Under the pieces are notes generated by a model. It had not been told where the DNA came from. It worked only from the letters and a program-made list of their open reading frames with translations, and did no database searches. A stretch of 64,000 nt of DNA from Haliotis rufescens. Taxonomy: Eukaryota. A program made the translations under genes and the position numbers. The stretch is taken from NCBI RefSeq assembly GCF_023055435.1, contig NW_025964001.1, forward strand, positions 16,616,001 to 16,680,000, read 5' to 3'. Below, piece by piece: positions 9,101 to 42,140 of this stretch (the stretch's first letter is position 1; the number at the start of each line of letters is the position of its first letter).

Positions 9101-12100
9101 ACATGTATTGCCATGGAACATTTTCAAAACTTGTAATTTGATGATCTCATTTGGTTAGTGCATTTAAATATGAATATGTCACACACTGTAACCACTTGAC
9201 CTTATTAGTCCACTCGCACTCATGGTCAGCTGGGGACTAGTGTGTCTCAACATGTGAGAATTAGAGGTGTAACGTTACAGTCAGGTTGCTATACCAAACG
9301 TGAGTGAGTGAGTTGGGTTTAACGCCGCTTTTAACAGTATTCCAGTTATATCACGGCGTGTCAGCTTAATTTTGGAGGAAAGCCCGAGGGGATGCAGGTC
9401 TCAGACGTTTACCACTTCGGTGAAACCCACGAGCACGGGTATGGTGCTGACAAACCTAGAAACATAATCGGGGTGAACCGGGATTCGAACCCACAATCAT
9501 AGGTTTCTGGCGTGTCCAAGGGACGCAACTCTACACAGCGAATCGTGGCGCTTTAGGCGACTGGGCCACCCGTGCCCCACTATACTATGAGTGTGATCTG
9601 ATTCATATCTCGATGCAGTACTTTTATTTCATAAGATGATATTCTTTCATTTTGTAGGAGAATCACAGCCTGAATCATTTGTTTATAAATTCACAGATCG
9701 AAGACATGATATTGTAGGGCAGATATATATTGGCTAGAGGGCCAACCTGGAAATACTAGATGATCTGTGTTATCTGGTTGTGAACAGTTTATGTTTTTAT
9801 TCATGTTTTTAGACTAATATAACTTGTAATGTAATGTTTCATATCACAACAGGGGTTTGTAAATGTATTGTAGCATGGGCCCCGTATACAATACTGTACT
9901 GTCGTATCATGACACTACAAGTTACAGTGTGTATGTAAAGAAGGTTTCAGAGTGAACTAATGCTAGACTTACTTGTAGTCATTAGCAGGGTTGTAGGAAG
10001 CAGTCACAGAGAATAAAGCCTGAAAGTAAACACATACTAAATATCTACATACTATGTGAACATAAACAGAACCAAAATAATCTCAATTTTACCAAACCCA
10101 CCCCTTTCAAAAAAGGAAAAGGAAAAACTGCATTGCAAATTTTCATTCATTAGGTGCATTGCACCATACTTTCAGATTGGAAAGAGGATTACAACATATC
10201 AAAATCTGCAAAAATGCGTCACTGCATGATGTGTATAGGCAAGACTTTCAATTGGTTCAGTGACCGTAAAAACTAATCTTTTTTTGTGATCAATGCAAAC
10301 TTATGTGATCAACACAGGACAATTGTATATAATTGTATAAACTGCATGACAATGTTGTAATAAGCATGACAAGTTAAACAACAAGCCTTAGCAACACTGA
10401 ACACCAAGGTATTACCAGTATATCGGTATATTGCAAAACACTTTTCAAACTATACGTATTACAATATTTTGTCCGTGTTCCTGTATATTGGGAACAAAAA
10501 AAACATTGTTAGTTGAATTGTTTAACCTAAAATCTACATAGGTATTCAGTCACAAATGATGTTTCTCTTCGAAACTGATTGACAAAAGAGAGGAAATGCA
10601 GAAATGATTTTTCTCTCAAGTTATCTCCCCTGTACAACTACAAAATGGCGGCGACTGACCATGTTGACCTTGACATTCTAATGTTCACTTCAGTGTGTAG
10701 AAAATAGGATCTTCACGTACAATCAGTGTCAATCACTGTATGTATCACAATACAGATACCTGTATTGCAATATATTGCAATCGAAATCTTTTGCAAATAC
10801 ACAGAACTACTGAACAGATGGCATTACAGATAACCATGATAGCATTTTGAAGAACAAACAAATAGTACATCTTTTTAAGTTTATTATCTTTCAAAACTAC
10901 CAACCAGGATGTTTCACTAAACAATTTGCAACCCAAGAAAAACAAAACATATTGCCTTCAGTAACACATATATATGGAATTCCTATGAGTAAAAGACAAG
11001 TGCCTGCAACTCACCTGTTCGTGGTAAGCATCCAGCAATGGTTGCCTGTTATCAGCATCATATAATGAGTAGTACTCTCTCAGGAATTTCACAACAATGT
11101 TTTGGATGTCTTCATTGAGAAAGTAACTTTCCTGAAACGAAGGTTAAGACAATTCTATAATCTTACACTAAACATCATTACATCAGCATTAGAAATTGGC
11201 ACTAGTCCTGTAATCCTTGCTAAACTGCCCAATAACTACGGTATCATAAGGACAAGTAGAAATTTGCCATTTTTAAAGTCTTTACTATATCTTTTCATTA
11301 AAGAACTAGTGGTCTGAAAGTGTTAGTTTCTAGCGCTGTACGTGATAATTACATCCTGTCTTGTGTTTACAGCGTGTGATAGATCTCATGTCAAGCATGA
11401 CAGTGTCACCCTTACCACAGTCCGCCCTTACTGCAACCACATGATATACAACAGCTAGCTTTGTTTACTGTTCGAAGCAACATTCAATATTTGAACCACC
11501 ATCTTCACCCCAAGTTTATTCCCATGTAGGAATGGTTTCCAGTAACCCATACTTGTAATAGTTGACGAATGACCACCATACTTCTAGAGCATAGTGCACA
11601 CTCAAGCATAATGTGCACCCCCTTTGGGGATGCAGTATTTTGGAAAAAACAACAGTTTTTTTCAGTATTATACAGTCAAACTCCATGGTAACGCTTAATA
11701 CCTTAGTTCTGGGCAACACAGTGCTGGTTTCCAGCTCGAATGTGATCGGTGGTGGCAGCACGTGACCATCCTACGACAGAAGCAACATAACTCATTCTGT
11801 GTGATAAGATATGCATTGTATTTCTTACACATATGAATTAAGTAAAGGACTTTTGACATTGTGAGCAAAACAACCATAAGGCTTAAAAATGTGATAATAA
11901 TTTGTGCTTCCAATTTCCACACATCCAAGAATAGAGTAGTTTGTTGGCATTTATCAAAATTCTTTGAATAATGAAAATTAACGGTATGCGAGTAAAAGCC
12001 TTATTTCAAATGATGAAACACTTGGTTTATCTATCGTGAAGCACGACAAATTTTCACTAGCATGGATGGGGATAAATATGGTGAAAAGGGCTCCAGGTTA

Positions 12101-15100
12101 GGGTTGGTTTGTGAAAATGAAATACAACTACAACTATTGAGGGCAAGAGAGTAGATAGAAGAGTGAAGAGAAGGCCTGTGAATTCATTAAATTGATATGA
12201 CACATGCAAATAATCTAACCAAGTTCTATTTTCAGTGCATCTCTACTCACCAGATTTATGACCTTGGGGAACCTCTTGCGTACGGCACTGCAAAATTTCA
12301 CATGTCAATTTTCTCAATATACTGAATATGCTACACAGACAAATATTTTTACTCAATAAGATTAATGAACTACTGAACTTTCGTTAATTGTCTTTACAGT
12401 AACAGAGCCCTAATGTTCATTACACTTCTGTAAGTTATATCTCTCCACTGAATATTCTGAACATAAGAAAAGCTGCTTACCGGTACTTTATTTATCATAC
12501 ATATTGTTACTAGAAAAGTGGGGACTTTCATGTACAGAATTAAATCATGTTTCACTTTTGTGCAAAAATACTTCTTGTTACAAATTGTTTGAATTTTTCC
12601 GGTACACAGATGTCAACTTTTCAACAACGAATTGCAGGAGGACAGTTAATAGTATCTTTGAACATTCCCTGAGCTGTGGTCTGCAGACTGGGATGAATGG
12701 CAGCTGGCAACGAAATACAGAGATGGTGGATTAAAGTAAATAGGATGGATAAGGGAACTGAATTCTCCTGCCCCACAGGGCACATTTGGAGCCAAATTCA
12801 TGGGAGAGGTGCCATTGTTTTAAATTGGCATGAGAAAACTCATTTACTTTAATGCAAATTTGGAACTATACCAAAAAAATTAAAAGTCGTTGATGCATTA
12901 CACCAACATCACAAGTCTTTAATTGTAATTCACTTCTATACAAAACAAAGCTGCTTCCTTTGAAGACAACATAATTAATTTCCAATAATTACATCCAATC
13001 AACAAAATATCAATTCCCAGATGATCGTGACAGACCTAAAGGTCCTAAGTTAAAAAGAAAATTCCATTTTTCTTGTCAAAGAGAAAAGAAAAAATTCAAA
13101 TAATTGCATCCAATCAATACAAATTCAATTTCCAGATGATCATGATCTTAGGTTCCAAACTAAAAAGAGATTCCTTTATTTGTGTTTGTAACTGGTGATA
13201 TCAGTTCTCGTCCAATGCTTCTTGCAAGAACACGTCAATTGAAACATATGAAATGGTTACTATGTTCCATGTTTTTGCCATGACATTGTGTCTGTTGTTT
13301 GTGTTACAATGTTGTCTGCAGGCAAACCAGAGTTCAAACATATCTATTTGTGATATGCATTTACATGCTTCAACACTGTAAACACTCCACAACAGCTCAA
13401 ATCTGATTGTGTAGTGTGGCAAGAATTTGTATACTGCACCAACAATATGAGGATAATGTGATGATATTACAATGTTCACACATATTTAAATCCCAGGTGT
13501 AGCAGCATCTAGACTACTTCCTGTCAGTTATAGCAAGCAGCGTCTCCATCCCGAGCCCCGACCACTCCTGTCTTAGGTTGTCTCCCCTTCTGAGAGATCT
13601 TACCCGTCATCAGAGCTGATCGCATCACTCGGGTCACGCAGCAGCCACTGTTTACTGACTTCATCTATTAGGATAATGCCATATCAATTTCAGGGATTGT
13701 GATCAAACTTCTTCAGTTTGAGCTCACTGAAATTGAGCAACATTATCTACCTCGCAGGCACTGTTGTGATCATTTTGTCGTATTCCTTTTTTGGCTCGGG
13801 TGTGGACAACTTCCTCATGATTATTTTAACTGTGACTTGCAAGTTGATGCAATGTATAAATGACTTGTATATATATTTTTGTTTTCAGACCATATTCCTC
13901 TTGAAATAATACCACAAATACATCACTACAGGACCTCCTTACTCACTACGCAAGGATGTAGGCGTATTCATGGTCGGGGTCATCGCCAGGTTAGTTCTGC
14001 CCAGTCTGCAGACCACAACTTCATGAGGATGCACAAAGTACTATTGCATCCAAGTAGCACATTACGACCAGTGGCACCACAACATCAAACAATAGCAAAG
14101 TAAAAAGGGCACAGAAATTTGGATGGACTCTTTTTCAAATATAGGAATCATAAAAAATCAAACATAGTCCTATTTCAACAACAAATTTTGAAGCTTGGAA
14201 TGACACAGAGAATGTGTTCAACTTTGTTGTTATCCTATAAAGTATGTATTGAAGGTTATTTGTTCAGTGGCTCTGAGAGGATTCATCAAGGCTGTGTAAT
14301 ATCTGGGAAGACAACAGTTCCACAGCAACTCCATCAAATTATTATCTTGTTGACACTTAACAACAGTAAATGATTATTTGTCAGTGAAACAGAGATGCCC
14401 CATATCAAGTTAACAAGCAGAGTTTTACCAGTACTGACCCAACATTAACGTCAACATAATGGTCTTATCGTTGTAAGGAGACTTGAACAGCAGCGGTTAT
14501 TAACAGTAAATGCTTGTTTGTCACTGTACCAGTACTGTTGGTCAATATTAATGGTCACATGATGTTCCTATGATTGTAAGGAGACATGTATTGCAGCTTT
14601 AGGGTAAGGTAGTATAACACATGCCACACTCGTGCTGCCGACACCACCAACTGAGGGAGGCTGAGGGGGCGCCGCTGCCACCAGTTGAGTTGTCTCACTT
14701 GTCACCTGTCCCTCGGCTGGATGGGTGGGGCAAGGAGTCATCCCGATCGATGGTGCAGCATCCCGTCAGACAATGGTGCTACCATACATTACCTAATGTA
14801 CTGATTACGGTCCTTGAAGCGGTCACACAGATCGTTGCCATCTAGCTGAATATGATCCAGTTTCCATCCACTGATCTTGTCCAACTCTTCGATGCTCCGC
14901 AGCTGAAACAGAGGTTTCTGGATGAGACAAGGTCCCCAGCAACCCGACTGGAAGATGTGACTTAATGGATCAGTAGACTTGGTGTGTTTGTTGAACGTCA
15001 CACTCAATAAATATTCCAGCTATGTGACAGCGGTCTGTAAATAATCGAGTCTGGACCAGACAATTCAGTAACTGATATCATGGACATCGATCCACTCAAT

Positions 15101-18100
15101 TGTGTTTGGTTTGTAGTTTAACGCCGCACTCAGCAATATTCCAGCTATGTGACGGCAGTCTGTAAATAATCGAGTCTGGACCAGACAATCCAGTGACTGA
15201 TATCATGAGCATCGATCCACTCAATTGGGATTGATGACATGCATCAACCAAGTCAGCGAGCCTGACCACCCGATCCCTTTAGTCGCCTCTTACCTACTCA
15301 GTTGGGATACGAGATGCATCAACTAAGGCAGCAGCCCTGACCACCCGATCCCGATGGTCGCCTCTTACGACAAGCATGTGCTGCTGAAGACCCATTCTAA
15401 CCTGGTTCTTCACGGGTCCATTACTTGGTTGATCGCCCAACTGCGCGAATCGGCGCTCATAGTATCAATCACTTGATTGATAACCAAAGTGATACAATGT
15501 AGTTTCGAATGAGGTTGTCTTACGTTAAATGAGAGACATAATTTTCAGGGAAGGAGGGAGGGAAGGTGTTAACTTTTCAAGCTCAGTGGCTGATAGTGAC
15601 AACATATCCATTAGTGGGTTTGGTGGGTAGCTGATGCCTCTAGCTTGTGACGTCACTCATCTTTCAACCTGTCAATATCATGATCATGAAACTGCAATAA
15701 TTATACAAGTTCTGTCATGCTCCTTACTTGGTTCTTGCCGAGGTCTAGTGAAGTAATGCCAGATGCAGCAGAGACCATGTCCGACATGTGTGTTAATGAC
15801 AGCAGGCGATTGTTGCTCAAGTTCAGGCTTGTAAGCTGAAACGCAAAGTATTTATTTTGTTCAGAAGTCCTGTTGAGCTAGAAATTAATGATCACATACA
15901 TGGACAACAAGTGACTACTCTTTCAACGCTGCAGCTCAATAAACAGAACCCAGACTGAACCTGAATGCAGATGAGGTCACACTGACCAAACCATGTCACA
16001 CATGAGGTAACCCTGGCTAAACCAGGTAATACATGAGGTAACCCTGGCCAAACCAAGTCATACATGAGGTAACCCTGGCCAAACCAGGTCACAAATGAGG
16101 TAGTTACCCTGGCCAAACCAGGTCATACATGAGGTTACCCTGGCCAAACCAAGTCATACATGAGGTAACCCTGGCCAAACCAGGTCATACATGAGGTAAC
16201 CCTGGCCAAACCAGGTCATACATGAGATAACCCTGGCCAAACCAGGTCACACATTAGGTAACCCTGGCCAAATCAGGTCATACATGAGGTAACCCTGGCC
16301 AAACCAGGTCATACATGAGGTAACCCTGGCCAAACCAGGTCACACATGAGGTAACCCTGAACAAACCAGGTCATACATGAGGTAACCCTGACCAAACCAG
16401 GTCATACATGAGGTAACCCTGGCCAAACCAGGTCACGCATTAGGTAACCCTGGCCAAACCAGGTCATACATGAGGTAACCCTGGCCAAACCAGGTCACAC
16501 ATGAGGTAACCCTGGCCAAACCAGGTCACACATGAGGTAACCCTGCCTGAACCAGGTCACAAATGAGGTAACCCTGACCAAACCAGGTCACACATGAGGT
16601 AACCCTGGCCAAACCAGGTCATACATGAGGTAACCCTGGCCAAACCAGGTCATACATGAGGTAACCCTGGCCAAACCAGGTCACACATGAGGTAACCCTG
16701 GCTAAACCAGGTCACACATGAGGTAACCCTGGCTAAACCAGGTCACACATGAGGTAACCCTGGCTAAACCAGGTCACACATGAGGTAACCCTGGCCAAAC
16801 CAGGTCATACATGAGGTAACCCTGGCCAAACCAGGTCACACATGAGGTAACCCTGGCCAAACCAGGTCACACATGAGGGAAATCTGCCTGAACCAGGTCA
16901 CAAATGAGGTCACCCTAACTAAACAGGTCACACATGATGTCACATTAACTAAACCAGGTCACACATGAGGTCGTAGTGACCAAACAACAATTCATTTTTG
17001 GGCATAAGACAACATCTACATTCCTATTTTCATGTCAGTGTTACATTACCTCCGGTATGTTTTCCTTTATGACTTTGATGACATTGGACATAACATTGCT
17101 TCTGTTCAGAGCCAGGAACATGCCAGCTGCTCTCAGTACTGCAAACACAGAGGTTCAAGTTAACACCAGGGCAAAAACAGTAAACAAACAGATTACTATA
17201 GTAAACAGTACCTTGAATAACAGACATACTGATATTAGCAATGAAAGTGAATGAACTAAACATGCAGTCAGCAACTACAGCCATATCAAGGATGTCCTTC
17301 AAGAAACAAGCTTCTCCCAGACAAACTACTGGCAGATACTGGAGTACAATCAGAGGTAGACACCAATTGTCAAATAAACTAGCCCACAGCTCATGTTTCA
17401 GACAAGTGGCTTATGTAAAATAATTAGCTATTGGGGATAAATAAATTGTCTGTCTAGAGTTTCATTAGTCTTGGACTTTCGGGCTAGTGACATTGCTTGA
17501 CTCCGGCAATCAGTCAGGTCACGGCTGAATGATAGTCATTCCTGGAACGTCTTACTCTCAGTGCAAGCAGGTGAAGTTGACCTCACACAAACTACAATCA
17601 ATGAATGACCGTCCCCTCTTTGAAGGAGTAAGACAGACAGATCTCATGACATGAATCCTTGCATTGCTGTGTTGATTGAAAATGCAGTTCCAATAGCTTA
17701 GTTTTAGTTGACATTGATAGACCATCCGCATTTCGTTTGGCCAGTCCAAGTGTCTGCTCAATATATATTACCCCTATATTAATAGGTACATTTGTGTCAT
17801 GCACACTTGGTTCAAAGAAAGCAGCACCCATGGTAAAACAATAATGATCAATAACTATTTGAAAATTTATTTAGTTAAAGGTTTTGTATCCATTTGAGCA
17901 AAGGTATGTACTGTATGTACTGTAATTCACTCCAAAGTAATATTAAAGGATCAGTTAAGAACTTGACTGAAAAGATATTCTTAAAATCTGTATTTTTTCC
18001 ACCTAGATTTGATTACCATGTTTTTATTAAAAATCCGAAGGAGCTATGGAGAAACCGTAGTAATGAACAGATCTGATGTTGGTCATCTCTTACAAGAGGT

Positions 18101-38597: not shown

Positions 38598-39143
38598 TAA
38601 AAATGTATGTATCAACTTCTCATTTTAATAAATCCTCCTGAAAGCAATGCCGGTATCCACACAGGATAGATATTTCTTTATAGGTAAGTGCACCCTTTAT
38701 GGGTCATGAGTGTCCGCTTTTTTTGTCCCAGGCCCTTTCTTGTGTATAATCCTGAAACAGACGAAGACATATTTGGAGTAAGTGAGTGGGGTTAACATCG
38801 CTTTGAACAGTGTTTCAGTTATATCATGACGTGTCTACGTCATGTGGGGGTAAAAAGTGATGATTATCTTATACGTTTACCACGGGTATGCAGCATGGTA
38901 TGGAGCAAACAAACCTAGTGCTAACCGAGATTCGAACCTACTATCTTAGGTTTCTGGCACGTCTGGCGAACTGCGGCGTCTTAGCCAACTGGACAAATCA
39001 TTATGAAACTAAAGAATAATGCTTAAAAAATCTTGCAAATATTGCAAAAGTAACAAAACAAAACTTATTTTGTATTAAGTGATGAAATTACTACACTTTA
39101 TTTATCGCCACATATGAATAGTTATTTCGCCCGGATCTACAAG

Positions 39144-42140
39144 CACACACTACATTCTTATGATCACATACACACACCCTCTGCAACACAATCACACACT
39201 ACATACCCATGATCACATACACACAACCTCTTCAACACAATCACACACTACATACCCATGATCACATACACACACCCTCTTCAACACAATCACACACTAC
39301 ATACCCATGATCACATACACACACCCTCTTCAACACAATCACACACTACATACCCATGATCACATACACACACCCTCTTCAACACAATCACACACTACAT
39401 ACCCATGATCACATACACACACCCTCTGCAACACAATCACAAGCTACATACTCATGACCACATACACACACCCTCTGCAAACCAATCACACACTACATAC
39501 TCATGATCACATACACACACCCTCTGCAACACAATCACAAGCTACATACTCATGACCACATACACACACCCTCTGCAAAGCAATCACACACTACATACCC
39601 ATGATCACATACACACACCCTCTGCAAACCAATCACACACTACATACTCATGATCACATGCACACACCCTCTGCAACACAATCACACACTACATACCCAT
39701 GATCACATACACACACCCTCTGGAAAGCAATCACACACTACATACCCATGATCACATACACACCCTCTGCAACACAATCACACACTACATACCCATGATC
39801 ACATACACACACCCTCTGCAAACCAATCACACACTACATACTCATGATCACATACACACACCCTCTGCAACACAATCACACACTACATACCCATGATCAC
39901 ATACACACACCCTCTGCAAACCAATCACACACTACATACTCATGATCACATACACACACCCTCTGTAACACAATCACAAGCTACATACTCATGACCATAT
40001 ACACACACCCTCTGCAACACAATCACACACTACATACTCATGATCACATACACACACCCTCTGCAACACAATCACAAGCTACATACTCATGACCACATAC
40101 ACACACCCTCTGCAACACAATAACACACTACATACCCATGATCACATACACACACCCTCTGCAACACAATCACACACTACTTACTCATGATCACATACAC
40201 ACACCCTCTGCAACACAATCACAAGCTACATACTCATGATCAGATACACACACCCTCTGCAACACAATCACACACTACATACCCATGATCACATACACAC
40301 ACCATCTGCAACACAATAACACACTACATACTCATGATCACATACACACACCCTCTGCAACACAATCACACACTACATACCAATGATCACATACACACAC
40401 CCTCTGCAACACAATCACAAGCTACATACTCATGACCACATACACACACCCTCTGCAACACAATCACACAGTTCATACCCATGATCACATATACACACCC
40501 TCTGCAACACAGTCACAAGCTACATACTCATGATCACATACACACACCCTCTGCAACACAATCACAAGCTACATGCTCATGACCACATACACACACCCTC
40601 TGCAACACAATCACAAGCTACATACTCATGACCACATACACCCACCCTCTGCAACACAATCACAAGCTACATACTCATGATCACATACACACACCCTCTG
40701 CAACACAATCACAAGCTACATACTCATGATCACATACACACACCCTCTGCAACACAATATCACACTACATACCCATGATCACATACACACCACCTCTGCA
40801 ACACAATCACACACTACATACCCATGATCACATACACACACCCTCTGCAACACAATCACACACTACATACCCATGATCACATACACACCACCTCTGCAAC
40901 ACAATCACACACTACATACCCATGATAACATACACACACCCTCTGCAACACAATCACACACTACATACTCATGATCACATACACACACCCTCTGCAACAC
41001 AATCACACACTACATACCCATGATCACATACACACACCCTCTGCAACACAATCACACACTACATACCCATGACCACATACACACCCCCTCTGCAACACAA
41101 TCACAAGCTACATACTCATGACCACATACACATTCCCCTCTGCAACACAATCACAAGCTACATACTCATGACCACATACACACACCCTCTGCAACACAAT
41201 CACACACTACATACCCATGACCACATACAACCCCCCTCTGCAACACAATCACAAGCTACATACTCATGACCACATACACACCCCCTCTGCAACACAATCA
41301 CAAGCTACATACTCATGATCACATACACACACCCTCTGCAACACAATCACACACCACATACCCATGATCACATACACACACCCTCTGCAACACAATCACA
41401 CACTACATACCCATGATCACATACACCCACCCTCTGCAACACAATCACACACTACATACCCATGATCACATACACCCCCCCCCCCCCCTCTGCAACAAAA
41501 TCACACACTACATACTCATGACCACATACACACCACCCCCCCCCCCCCCCCCTCCTCCTCTGCAACACAATCACAAGCTACATGCTCATGACCACATACA
41601 CACACCCTCTGCAACACAATCACTAGCTACATACTCATGATCACATACACACACCCTCTGCAACACAATCACAAGCTACATACTCATGATCACATACACA
41701 CACCCTCTGCAACACAATCACACACTACATACCCATGATCACATACACACACCCTCTGCAACACAATCACACACTACATACCCATGATCACATAAACACA
41801 CCCTTTGCAACACAATCACACACTACATATCCATGATCACATACACACACCCTCTGCAACACAATCACACACTACATACTCATGACCACATACACACACC
41901 CTCTGCAACACAATCACACACTACATACCCATGATCACATACACACACCCTCTGCAACACAATCACACACTACATACTCATGATCACATACACACACCCT
42001 CTGCAACACAATCACACACTACATACCCATGACCACATACACACACCCTCTGCAACACAATCACACACTACATACCCATGACCACATACACACACCCTCT
42101 GCAACACAATCACACACTACATACCCATGACCACATACCT
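39144..42140. repeat. 49-bp CA-rich minisatellite, about 60 copies
   Basis: Unit CACATACACACACCCTCTGCAACACAATCACACACTACATACCCATGAT. Confidence 0.95.

Follow-up and report, generated by a model that had tools for sequence, protein, structure and literature searches.

The closest described counterpart of the locus reported here is intron 10 of vertebrate NXF1. NXF1 regulates itself via this retained intron, and Wang, Rekosh and Hammarskjold (2015, PMC4338338) report, in the available part of their paper, CTEs for mammals, zebrafish and coelacanth; fly and worm had none, and the words 'invertebrate' and 'mollus' are absent from its text. According to the same part, a conserved 5' splice site adjoins the CTE loop and no use of it in NXF1 genes is in evidence; both the cause of retention and the role of this splice site are named there as open questions. 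The accessible portions of other papers add that AAGACA is the named conserved CTE loop (PMC4330393), that NXF1 heavily binds its own intron 10 in mouse cells (PMC4782049), and that human short NXF1 has 356 residues, 18 of them encoded by intron 10 (PMC5170612).

Decoy exons in retained introns (SF3B1, OGT, ARGLU1 and DDX39B; Parra et al. 2018, PMC6097662) are internal 3'/5' splice-like pairs in retained introns of >1 kb that are rarely or never included. In the accessible text of that paper they are sequence-conserved, bind U2AF and give leaky junctions, NXF1 is not among the decoys named, and the phrase 'secondary structure' does not occur. IRBIS-type complementary regions and the Dscam1 docking/balancer pairings, as the available parts of their sources describe them, are short near-perfect arms >1 kb apart in one intron that cover a splice-like site, and they are defined by orthologue conservation and compensatory change. 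Transposon inverted-repeat duplexes (Alu-like pairs, MITE ends) form long imperfect intronic duplexes as well, and are common in the genome examined here.

The window that we analysed is a stretch of 64,000 nt from the abalone Haliotis rufescens (contig NW_025964001.1). Its minus strand encodes NXF1 and the animal is a mollusc, both as an initial annotation of the DNA had held: in a profile search single exons matched Pfam LRR_NXF1-5, Tap-RNA_bind and NXF_NTF2, exons also matched human NXF1 structures in a PDB search, and the matching protein record, nuclear RNA export factor 1-like of Haliotis rufescens (638 aa), spans 24 coding exons in a spliced alignment. The intron that concerns us is the longest among the 23 introns of the coding region. 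An Rfam scan of the window at gathering thresholds gave 0 matches. The features of this part of the gene are as follows.

14793 to 14902, minus strand: NXF1 coding exon 12, the end of the LRR domain (Pfam LRR_NXF1-5, E 3.8e-10; PDB 3rw6; spliced alignment), equivalent to vertebrate exon 10
12288 to 14792, minus strand: retained CTE intron of 2,505 nt with GT-AG ends, following coding exon 12
14789 to 14791, minus strand: in-frame TAA directly after the intron donor, from translation of the retained form
13523 to 13659, minus strand: CTE with extended stem; core 13608-13567, AAGACA loop, donor-like CGG/GTAAGA with its GT at 13603-13602
12251 to 12287, minus strand: NXF1 coding exon 13, 37 nt, equivalent to vertebrate exon 11

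Because the position of the abalone intron aligns to rat residue 337 and zebrafish residue 360, and the human short form of 356 residues less its 18 intron-encoded ones ends at the corresponding point, we equate this intron with vertebrate intron 10. As described in the available parts of PMC4338338 and of Li et al. 2016 (PMC5170612), the two share the intron position, a single-loop CTE with AAGACA, a donor-like site beside the loop, a CTE slightly nearer the 5' end, retention, and an in-frame stop giving a short protein. They differ in that the stop comes after one intron-completed codon in abalone and after 18 residues in the vertebrate short form, that no long-range duplex or upstream acceptor is described in those parts for the vertebrate intron, and that the abalone is a protostome. 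The retained abalone mRNA would encode a predicted short NXF1 of 347 aa.

The CTE intron was covered in four of four RNA-like runs (three studies) at a contig depth of 11-20, with intron contigs reaching 28-30 nt into both flanking exons. Two downstream introns were at or near zero depth in the same four runs, a repeat excepted, and the joint that removes the whole intron (12287-14793) was present in all four at a depth of 6.6-15. The RNA-like status of these runs is a guess; they do show spliced joints and empty neighbouring introns. The depths suggest that about half of the transcripts keep the CTE intron, contig depth being a poor measure. A short repeat at 11184-11276 had very high depth in all four runs and is probably an abundant transcribed element.

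The core of the element (13608-13567) was the sole match to the CTE pattern in a genome-wide search. It carries 13-nt and 15-nt identities to a retroviral double CTE, and identities of 15 nt and 9 nt to the SRV-1 CTE primers printed in the available part of PMC4330393. Sequence and fold place AAGACA opposite an AUGAC strand in an internal loop. The sense strand folds better (fold z -2.17 versus -0.58 for antisense), and the element folds locally by itself. The single genome match, the retroviral identity and the folds sustain the CTE named in the initial annotation and its position between two complementary arms. We conclude that the abalone NXF1 intron holds a bona fide CTE sequence, whose binding by NXF1-NXT1 and role in export are putative.

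A scan with the CTE pattern gave 17 metagenome loci, of which 15 were set aside as retroviral-like, two with pol-like frames by inspection and the others grouped by BLAST or CTE flanks; L009 and L017 were left as comparators. The fifteen (L002-L008, L010-L016 and L018) have one CTE pattern match each and three flank types. A further match, L059 4001-4045, the only one among genome contigs, was dismissed: it arose by chance in a bacterial coding sequence that has no NXF1 matches, the pattern alone being no proof. Three viral matches were retroviral CTEs. L017 is the NXF gene of an unplaced animal, with a protein ~36-44% identical to the best 15 of 120 NXF1 proteins; its CTE lies in the same intron, which is cut by the contig end ~930 nt downstream. 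L009, read on its reverse complement (locus position = 2437 minus x), has the full CTE fold and no exon, and hence is only a candidate NXF1. The GGGU/ACCU helix and a 6-bp apical stem are common to abalone, L009 and L017, with different stem sequences; the base preceding AUGAC is G in abalone and A in the other two.

The arms that bracket the abalone CTE lie ~1.3 kb apart, and are predicted to pair as follows.

14021 to 14051, minus strand: 5' arm outer extension, from folds; a 19-mer in it is single copy at one mismatch or fewer
14000 to 14020, minus strand: 5' arm of the core helix, 20-21 bp, containing an acceptor-like TCTGCAG that ends at 14006
13980 to 13989, minus strand: 5' arm of the inner helix, 10 bp with two G-U pairs, from the cofold and the whole-intron fold
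12704 to 12713, minus strand: 3' arm of the inner helix, from the cofold and the whole-intron fold
12672 to 12692, minus strand: 3' arm of the core helix, containing a second TCTGCAG that ends at 12681
12640 to 12671, minus strand: 3' arm outer extension, from folds

Positions 12675-12692 are the exact reverse complement of 14000-14017. On the minus strand, the sense strand of NXF1, the core helix is 20-21 bp long (20 bp, including one U-G pair); the inner helix (13989-13981/12712-12704) has two G-U pairs. A sequence check and a cofold of -60.9 kcal/mol reproduced both helices as the initial annotation had drawn them, with one further A-U pair bringing the inner helix to 10 bp. Folding the whole intron by partition function upheld them too, with a mean pair probability of 0.98 for each. 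The annotation had lacked the outward extension, in which 14051-14021 pairs with 12671-12640; with it, the full duplex comes to ~60 predicted pairs and -83.9 kcal/mol. The outer part decays gradually, and the ends of the duplex fade without a defined boundary. In the whole-intron fold, nested helices run across the entire intron, with the CTE near the tip.

The best helix of the intron scored 46.7, against 24.7 +/- 2.4 for dinucleotide shuffles, none of which (0/300) reached that score. Among genomic controls from 40 genome stretches, 16 of 318 segment-strands (5%) did so. In 14 of these 16, the arms match at least 6 times in the 464-kb control set; among controls with low-copy arms, helices this strong numbered 3/238. 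The abalone arms have 2 matches each in that set, namely the arms themselves, and the 18-mer of the duplex has exactly two exact copies in the genome, which are the two arms; at one mismatch there were 2 more matches versus 1 for a control pattern. Both arms are thus single copy and not a high-copy repeat, in agreement with the initial annotation, which had found them unlike the TE families it recognised. A TIR element or MITE was rejected on the same search, since multi-copy arms would be expected and none other was found. Unlike transposon inverted repeats, these single-copy arms enclose an ancient host element.

Intron 11 (14903-15727) holds a stronger helix, of 52.0, which arises from opposed repeat-like copies resembling repeats of the control set; it also holds direct repeats of 99 and 58 nt. 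Within the CTE intron, diverged short direct duplications occur at 12977-13145 and 14357-14597, so that local duplication does happen here. Elsewhere in the window, a tandem array of a 31-nt unit in >20 copies occupies 16010-16991, in the intron after NXF1 coding exon 10, and 39001-42000, where base skew is very strong (GC -0.73 to -0.80, AT +0.32 to +0.38), is probably satellite.

The locus was found in 20 sequencing runs from two organisms, A and B, of which B differs only at the level of polymorphism; none of these runs is recorded as RNA. Across six runs there were 14 SNPs. Two fall within the 62 core-paired bases; both break pairs, occur in one run each, cost 5.1 and 1.9 kcal/mol, and speak against tight constraint. 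Ten of the 14 SNPs lie on predicted pairs of the whole-intron fold and 8 of these 10 break them; together with a chain that, once the main helix was taken out, was matched by 59/200 shuffles, this led us to reject a whole-intron rod for abalone. The initial annotation had read the wobble pairs as a sign of selection on the sense strand. With strand-symmetric scoring of the extended duplex we counted 16 G-U versus 8 A-C oppositions, against an expected G-U share of 0.53 and in a region picked from a sense-strand fold; the energies are -83.9 kcal/mol for sense and -73.5 kcal/mol for antisense. We regard this as a weak sign of such selection.

We scored splice-like sites with a model built from the gene's other 22 introns. 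The donor-like GT of the CTE scored 8.2 versus 5.2 for the true donor and ranked 1/166 in the intron. The acceptor-like TCTGCAG of the 5' arm scored 7.3 versus 6.0 for the true acceptor; its AG was tied fifth of 137 intron AGs and ranked 1/62 among AGs upstream of the CTE. This AG stayed in the top 3 in 93% of bootstrap models and ranked 2 when the training data came from a different animal. Under a crude pyrimidine-count rule the arm AG came only 17-21/62 in abalone, 6-11/96 in L009 and 2-4/59 in L017. Nine other intron AGs, outside the arms, also outscore the true acceptor, and at 14024, the closest branch-point-like A, 5/6 runs have G. The TCTGCAG of the 3' arm, ending at 12681, ranked 11/137. 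With CCG/GTAAGC at 12480 (rank 3/166) it could bound a second pseudo-exon of 200 nt, 12680-12481 on the minus strand, for which no joint was seen. The arm acceptor and the CTE donor together outline the following feature.

13604 to 14005, minus strand: predicted pseudo-exon of 402 nt from splice-site scoring, with stops in all three frames (12, 5 and 11)

The palindromic core of the duplex is therefore an acceptor-like YTGCAG, which the initial annotation had overlooked. That annotation had offered the 10-nt central palindrome as a caveat. The palindrome is real, and the acceptor accounts for the caveat: CTGCAG reads the same on both strands, so that any helix covering an acceptor of this kind has a palindromic middle. 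The energies of self-pairing (-21.7 and -18.9 kcal/mol for self-dimers, -2.4 and -1.0 kcal/mol for hairpins) are weak, so that the palindrome does not explain the duplex. In the four RNA-like contig sets, from which rare forms drop out, we found no further joint inside the CTE intron, be it pseudo-exon inclusion or partial splicing, and no leaky junctions to the flanking exons. By score, this retained intron of >1 kb has an internal 3'/5' splice-site pair, as the introns with decoy exons do. Unlike the decoys described in the available text of PMC6097662, the abalone pseudo-exon is predicted from scoring, its acceptor would lie in a long-range helix, and its donor is part of an export element.

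Both comparator contigs have a similar arrangement. When all pairs were considered, the strongest helix in L009 and in L017 was one enclosing the CTE. It scored 33.4 in L009, against 22.0 +/- 2.2 for shuffles (0/200 reach it), and 29.7 in L017, against 22.9 +/- 2.3 (2/200 reach it). Size-matched abalone controls reached the L009 helix in 22/318 and the L017 helix in 42/398 cases, 4 and 13 of them with low-copy arms. L009 has two further nested helices, and the nested chain of L017 beats 200/200 shuffles. In each, the AG ranked first upstream of the CTE (1/96 in L009 and 1/61 in L017) lies in the 5' arm of the top helix, 232 nt and 300 nt, respectively, from the CTE donor. Across abalone, L009 and L017, the arm AG ranked in the top 3 in 73-100% of bootstrap and cross-trained models. 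An arm held the rank-1 AG in 9, 3 and 7 of 400 shuffles of the three sequences and in 7/316 genomic segments, and in 3/28 (11%) of the strong short helices among genomic controls. TGCAG is present in 3/3 arms, with 11-13/300 shuffles giving it for each. The arm-acceptor test is post hoc, because the common TGCAG had been noticed in all three sequences before testing; L059, the only candidate for a prospective test, was the chance bacterial match.

The arms of L009 and L017 show no sequence homology to those of abalone and do not align with them. Arm homology between species was rejected after a search in which the 5' arm of L009 itself came second among the matches, with a score of 20 versus a shuffle mean of 21.6. 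The donor of the pseudo-exon is conserved as part of the CTE, and its acceptor recurs in layout only. The IRBIS-type and Dscam1 pairings, as described in the available parts of their sources, are short near-perfect arms of the same kind with orthologue conservation and compensatory change, whereas here the layout alone recurs, in sequences too distant to align. A 14-nt word at 14228-14241 (minus strand), upstream of the CTE, has one occurrence in the abalone intron and two in L009 (E 0.019), by chance or as a protein site.

We regard the locus as a probable splice-masking RNA structure. In the reading that we prefer, at just short of an even chance, the duplex hides a cryptic 3' splice site; left exposed, this site would be used together with the CTE 5' splice site to define the 402-nt, stop-containing pseudo-exon. 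The arms would pair in NXF1 pre-mRNA, the 5' arm burying the best upstream acceptor-like AG and the CTE's own helix probably covering part of the CTE donor. Because splicing at the CTE donor would sever the two strands of the CTE loop, it would spoil both the full and the retained mRNA. Masking would make the choice all-or-none: either the intron would be removed whole, giving full NXF1, or it would be kept whole, with an intact CTE that NXF1 would bind and export, giving short NXF1. Since transcription reaches the 3' arm only 1.3 kb beyond the 5' arm, there would be an interval in which the acceptor is open; in folds of nascent fragments the arm was mostly 20-60% unpaired, and <10% once the 3' arm was present. 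While open, the acceptor could act as a decoy that slows intron removal, the least supported step of the scheme; PMC6097662 proposes a decoy role of this sort for cryptic exons within retained introns. The contigs with no inclusion joint, the branch-like A that is G in most runs, and the strong acceptors exposed elsewhere in the intron speak against both masking and decoy. The initial annotation had proposed that the duplex loops out the CTE-bearing segment and could control retention or CTE presentation. The CTE is indeed enclosed and the intron retained, but the acceptor-like core points to splice-site masking and not to general looping-out.

The duplex could instead be a structural scaffold that compacts the long retained intron and displays the CTE to NXF1 at the tip, with the buried acceptor-like motif a passenger surviving because it is buried. 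A top helix enclosing the CTE in 3/3 sequences, the nested helices of L009 and nested chain of L017, and the position of the CTE near the tip of the whole-intron fold would all suit a scaffold. We nevertheless consider it unlikely: the abalone helices besides the main one do not exceed shuffles, SNPs break most of the predicted pairs on which they lie, and the TGCAG in all three arms is left to chance. Moreover, the CTE folds by itself, and short cloned CTEs function in reporters, according to the available part of PMC4338338. We also give a low probability to the arms being a neutral remnant with no RNA role, either of an old local inverted duplication or of two opposed copies of an extinct element. 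Neither arm has another copy, no insertion could be nearly as old as the enclosed CTE, and two unrelated contigs likewise have a strong helix around the CTE, at the control frequencies given above, all of which argue against a remnant; the genomic controls as strong as the abalone helix, including those with low-copy arms, the gradual, old-repeat-like decay of the outer part, the stronger helix in the next intron upstream, the two broken core pairs and the modest strand asymmetry argue for it.

With ~60 predicted pairs and a 20-bp perfect core, the duplex is long enough for dsRNA-binding proteins. It might thus serve mainly to bind such proteins (ADAR, Staufen), or to be cut by Dicer, and in this way decide what becomes of the retained transcript, as the initial annotation had suggested for ADAR and Staufen. 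We think this very improbable. The short mammalian NXF1 protein co-localises with Staufen2 in the available part of PMC5170612, an observation on the protein and not on abalone RNA. Inside either core arm no sense-strand A>G change was seen in the four RNA-like runs, whose contigs give majority letters only. The sole A>G adjoining an arm, at 14024, is a polymorphism and not A-to-I editing, because both DNA runs carry it too. Two small-RNA runs contributed 0 reads and hence do not weigh for or against small RNAs from the duplex.

A wider form of the masking reading is doubtful but worth stating. In it, the CTE 5' splice site would belong to an ancient decoy exon, as its donor, and a long-range helix would switch off the acceptor of that exon. 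The layout, an acceptor in a helix 200-400 nt upstream, would have been kept across distant animals without sequence conservation, and retention would be set by a race of spliceosome loading versus co-transcriptional helix closure, with NXF1-CTE feedback.

A CTE and a retained intron in NXF1 are known already from vertebrates; what is new here is the predicted burial of the best upstream acceptor, the CTE as best donor, and the outline of a 402-nt pseudo-exon between them. In 2013, Mamon and colleagues reportedly identified conserved blocks in the vertebrate nxf1 retained intron and a predicted structure for it, which may anticipate a duplex. The open literature, mostly as titles and abstract starts and with subscription papers outside, gave no mollusc CTE, no long-range duplex in this intron and no CTE-bounded pseudo-exon. 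NXF is not mentioned in the available text of Frith and Ni 2023 (PMC10735318), and the available parts of that paper, PMC8151460 and PMC7551171 added nothing on the duplex.

The range given in PMC4338338 does not extend to a CTE in the retained NXF1 intron of a mollusc; L017, from an unplaced animal, is a second case. Since the abalone is a protostome, its CTE with retained intron would trace the device back to the last common ancestor of bilaterians. The abalone locus offers one testable answer to why the intron is retained and why the CTE carries its 5' splice site, and it yields a prediction for vertebrate intron 10.
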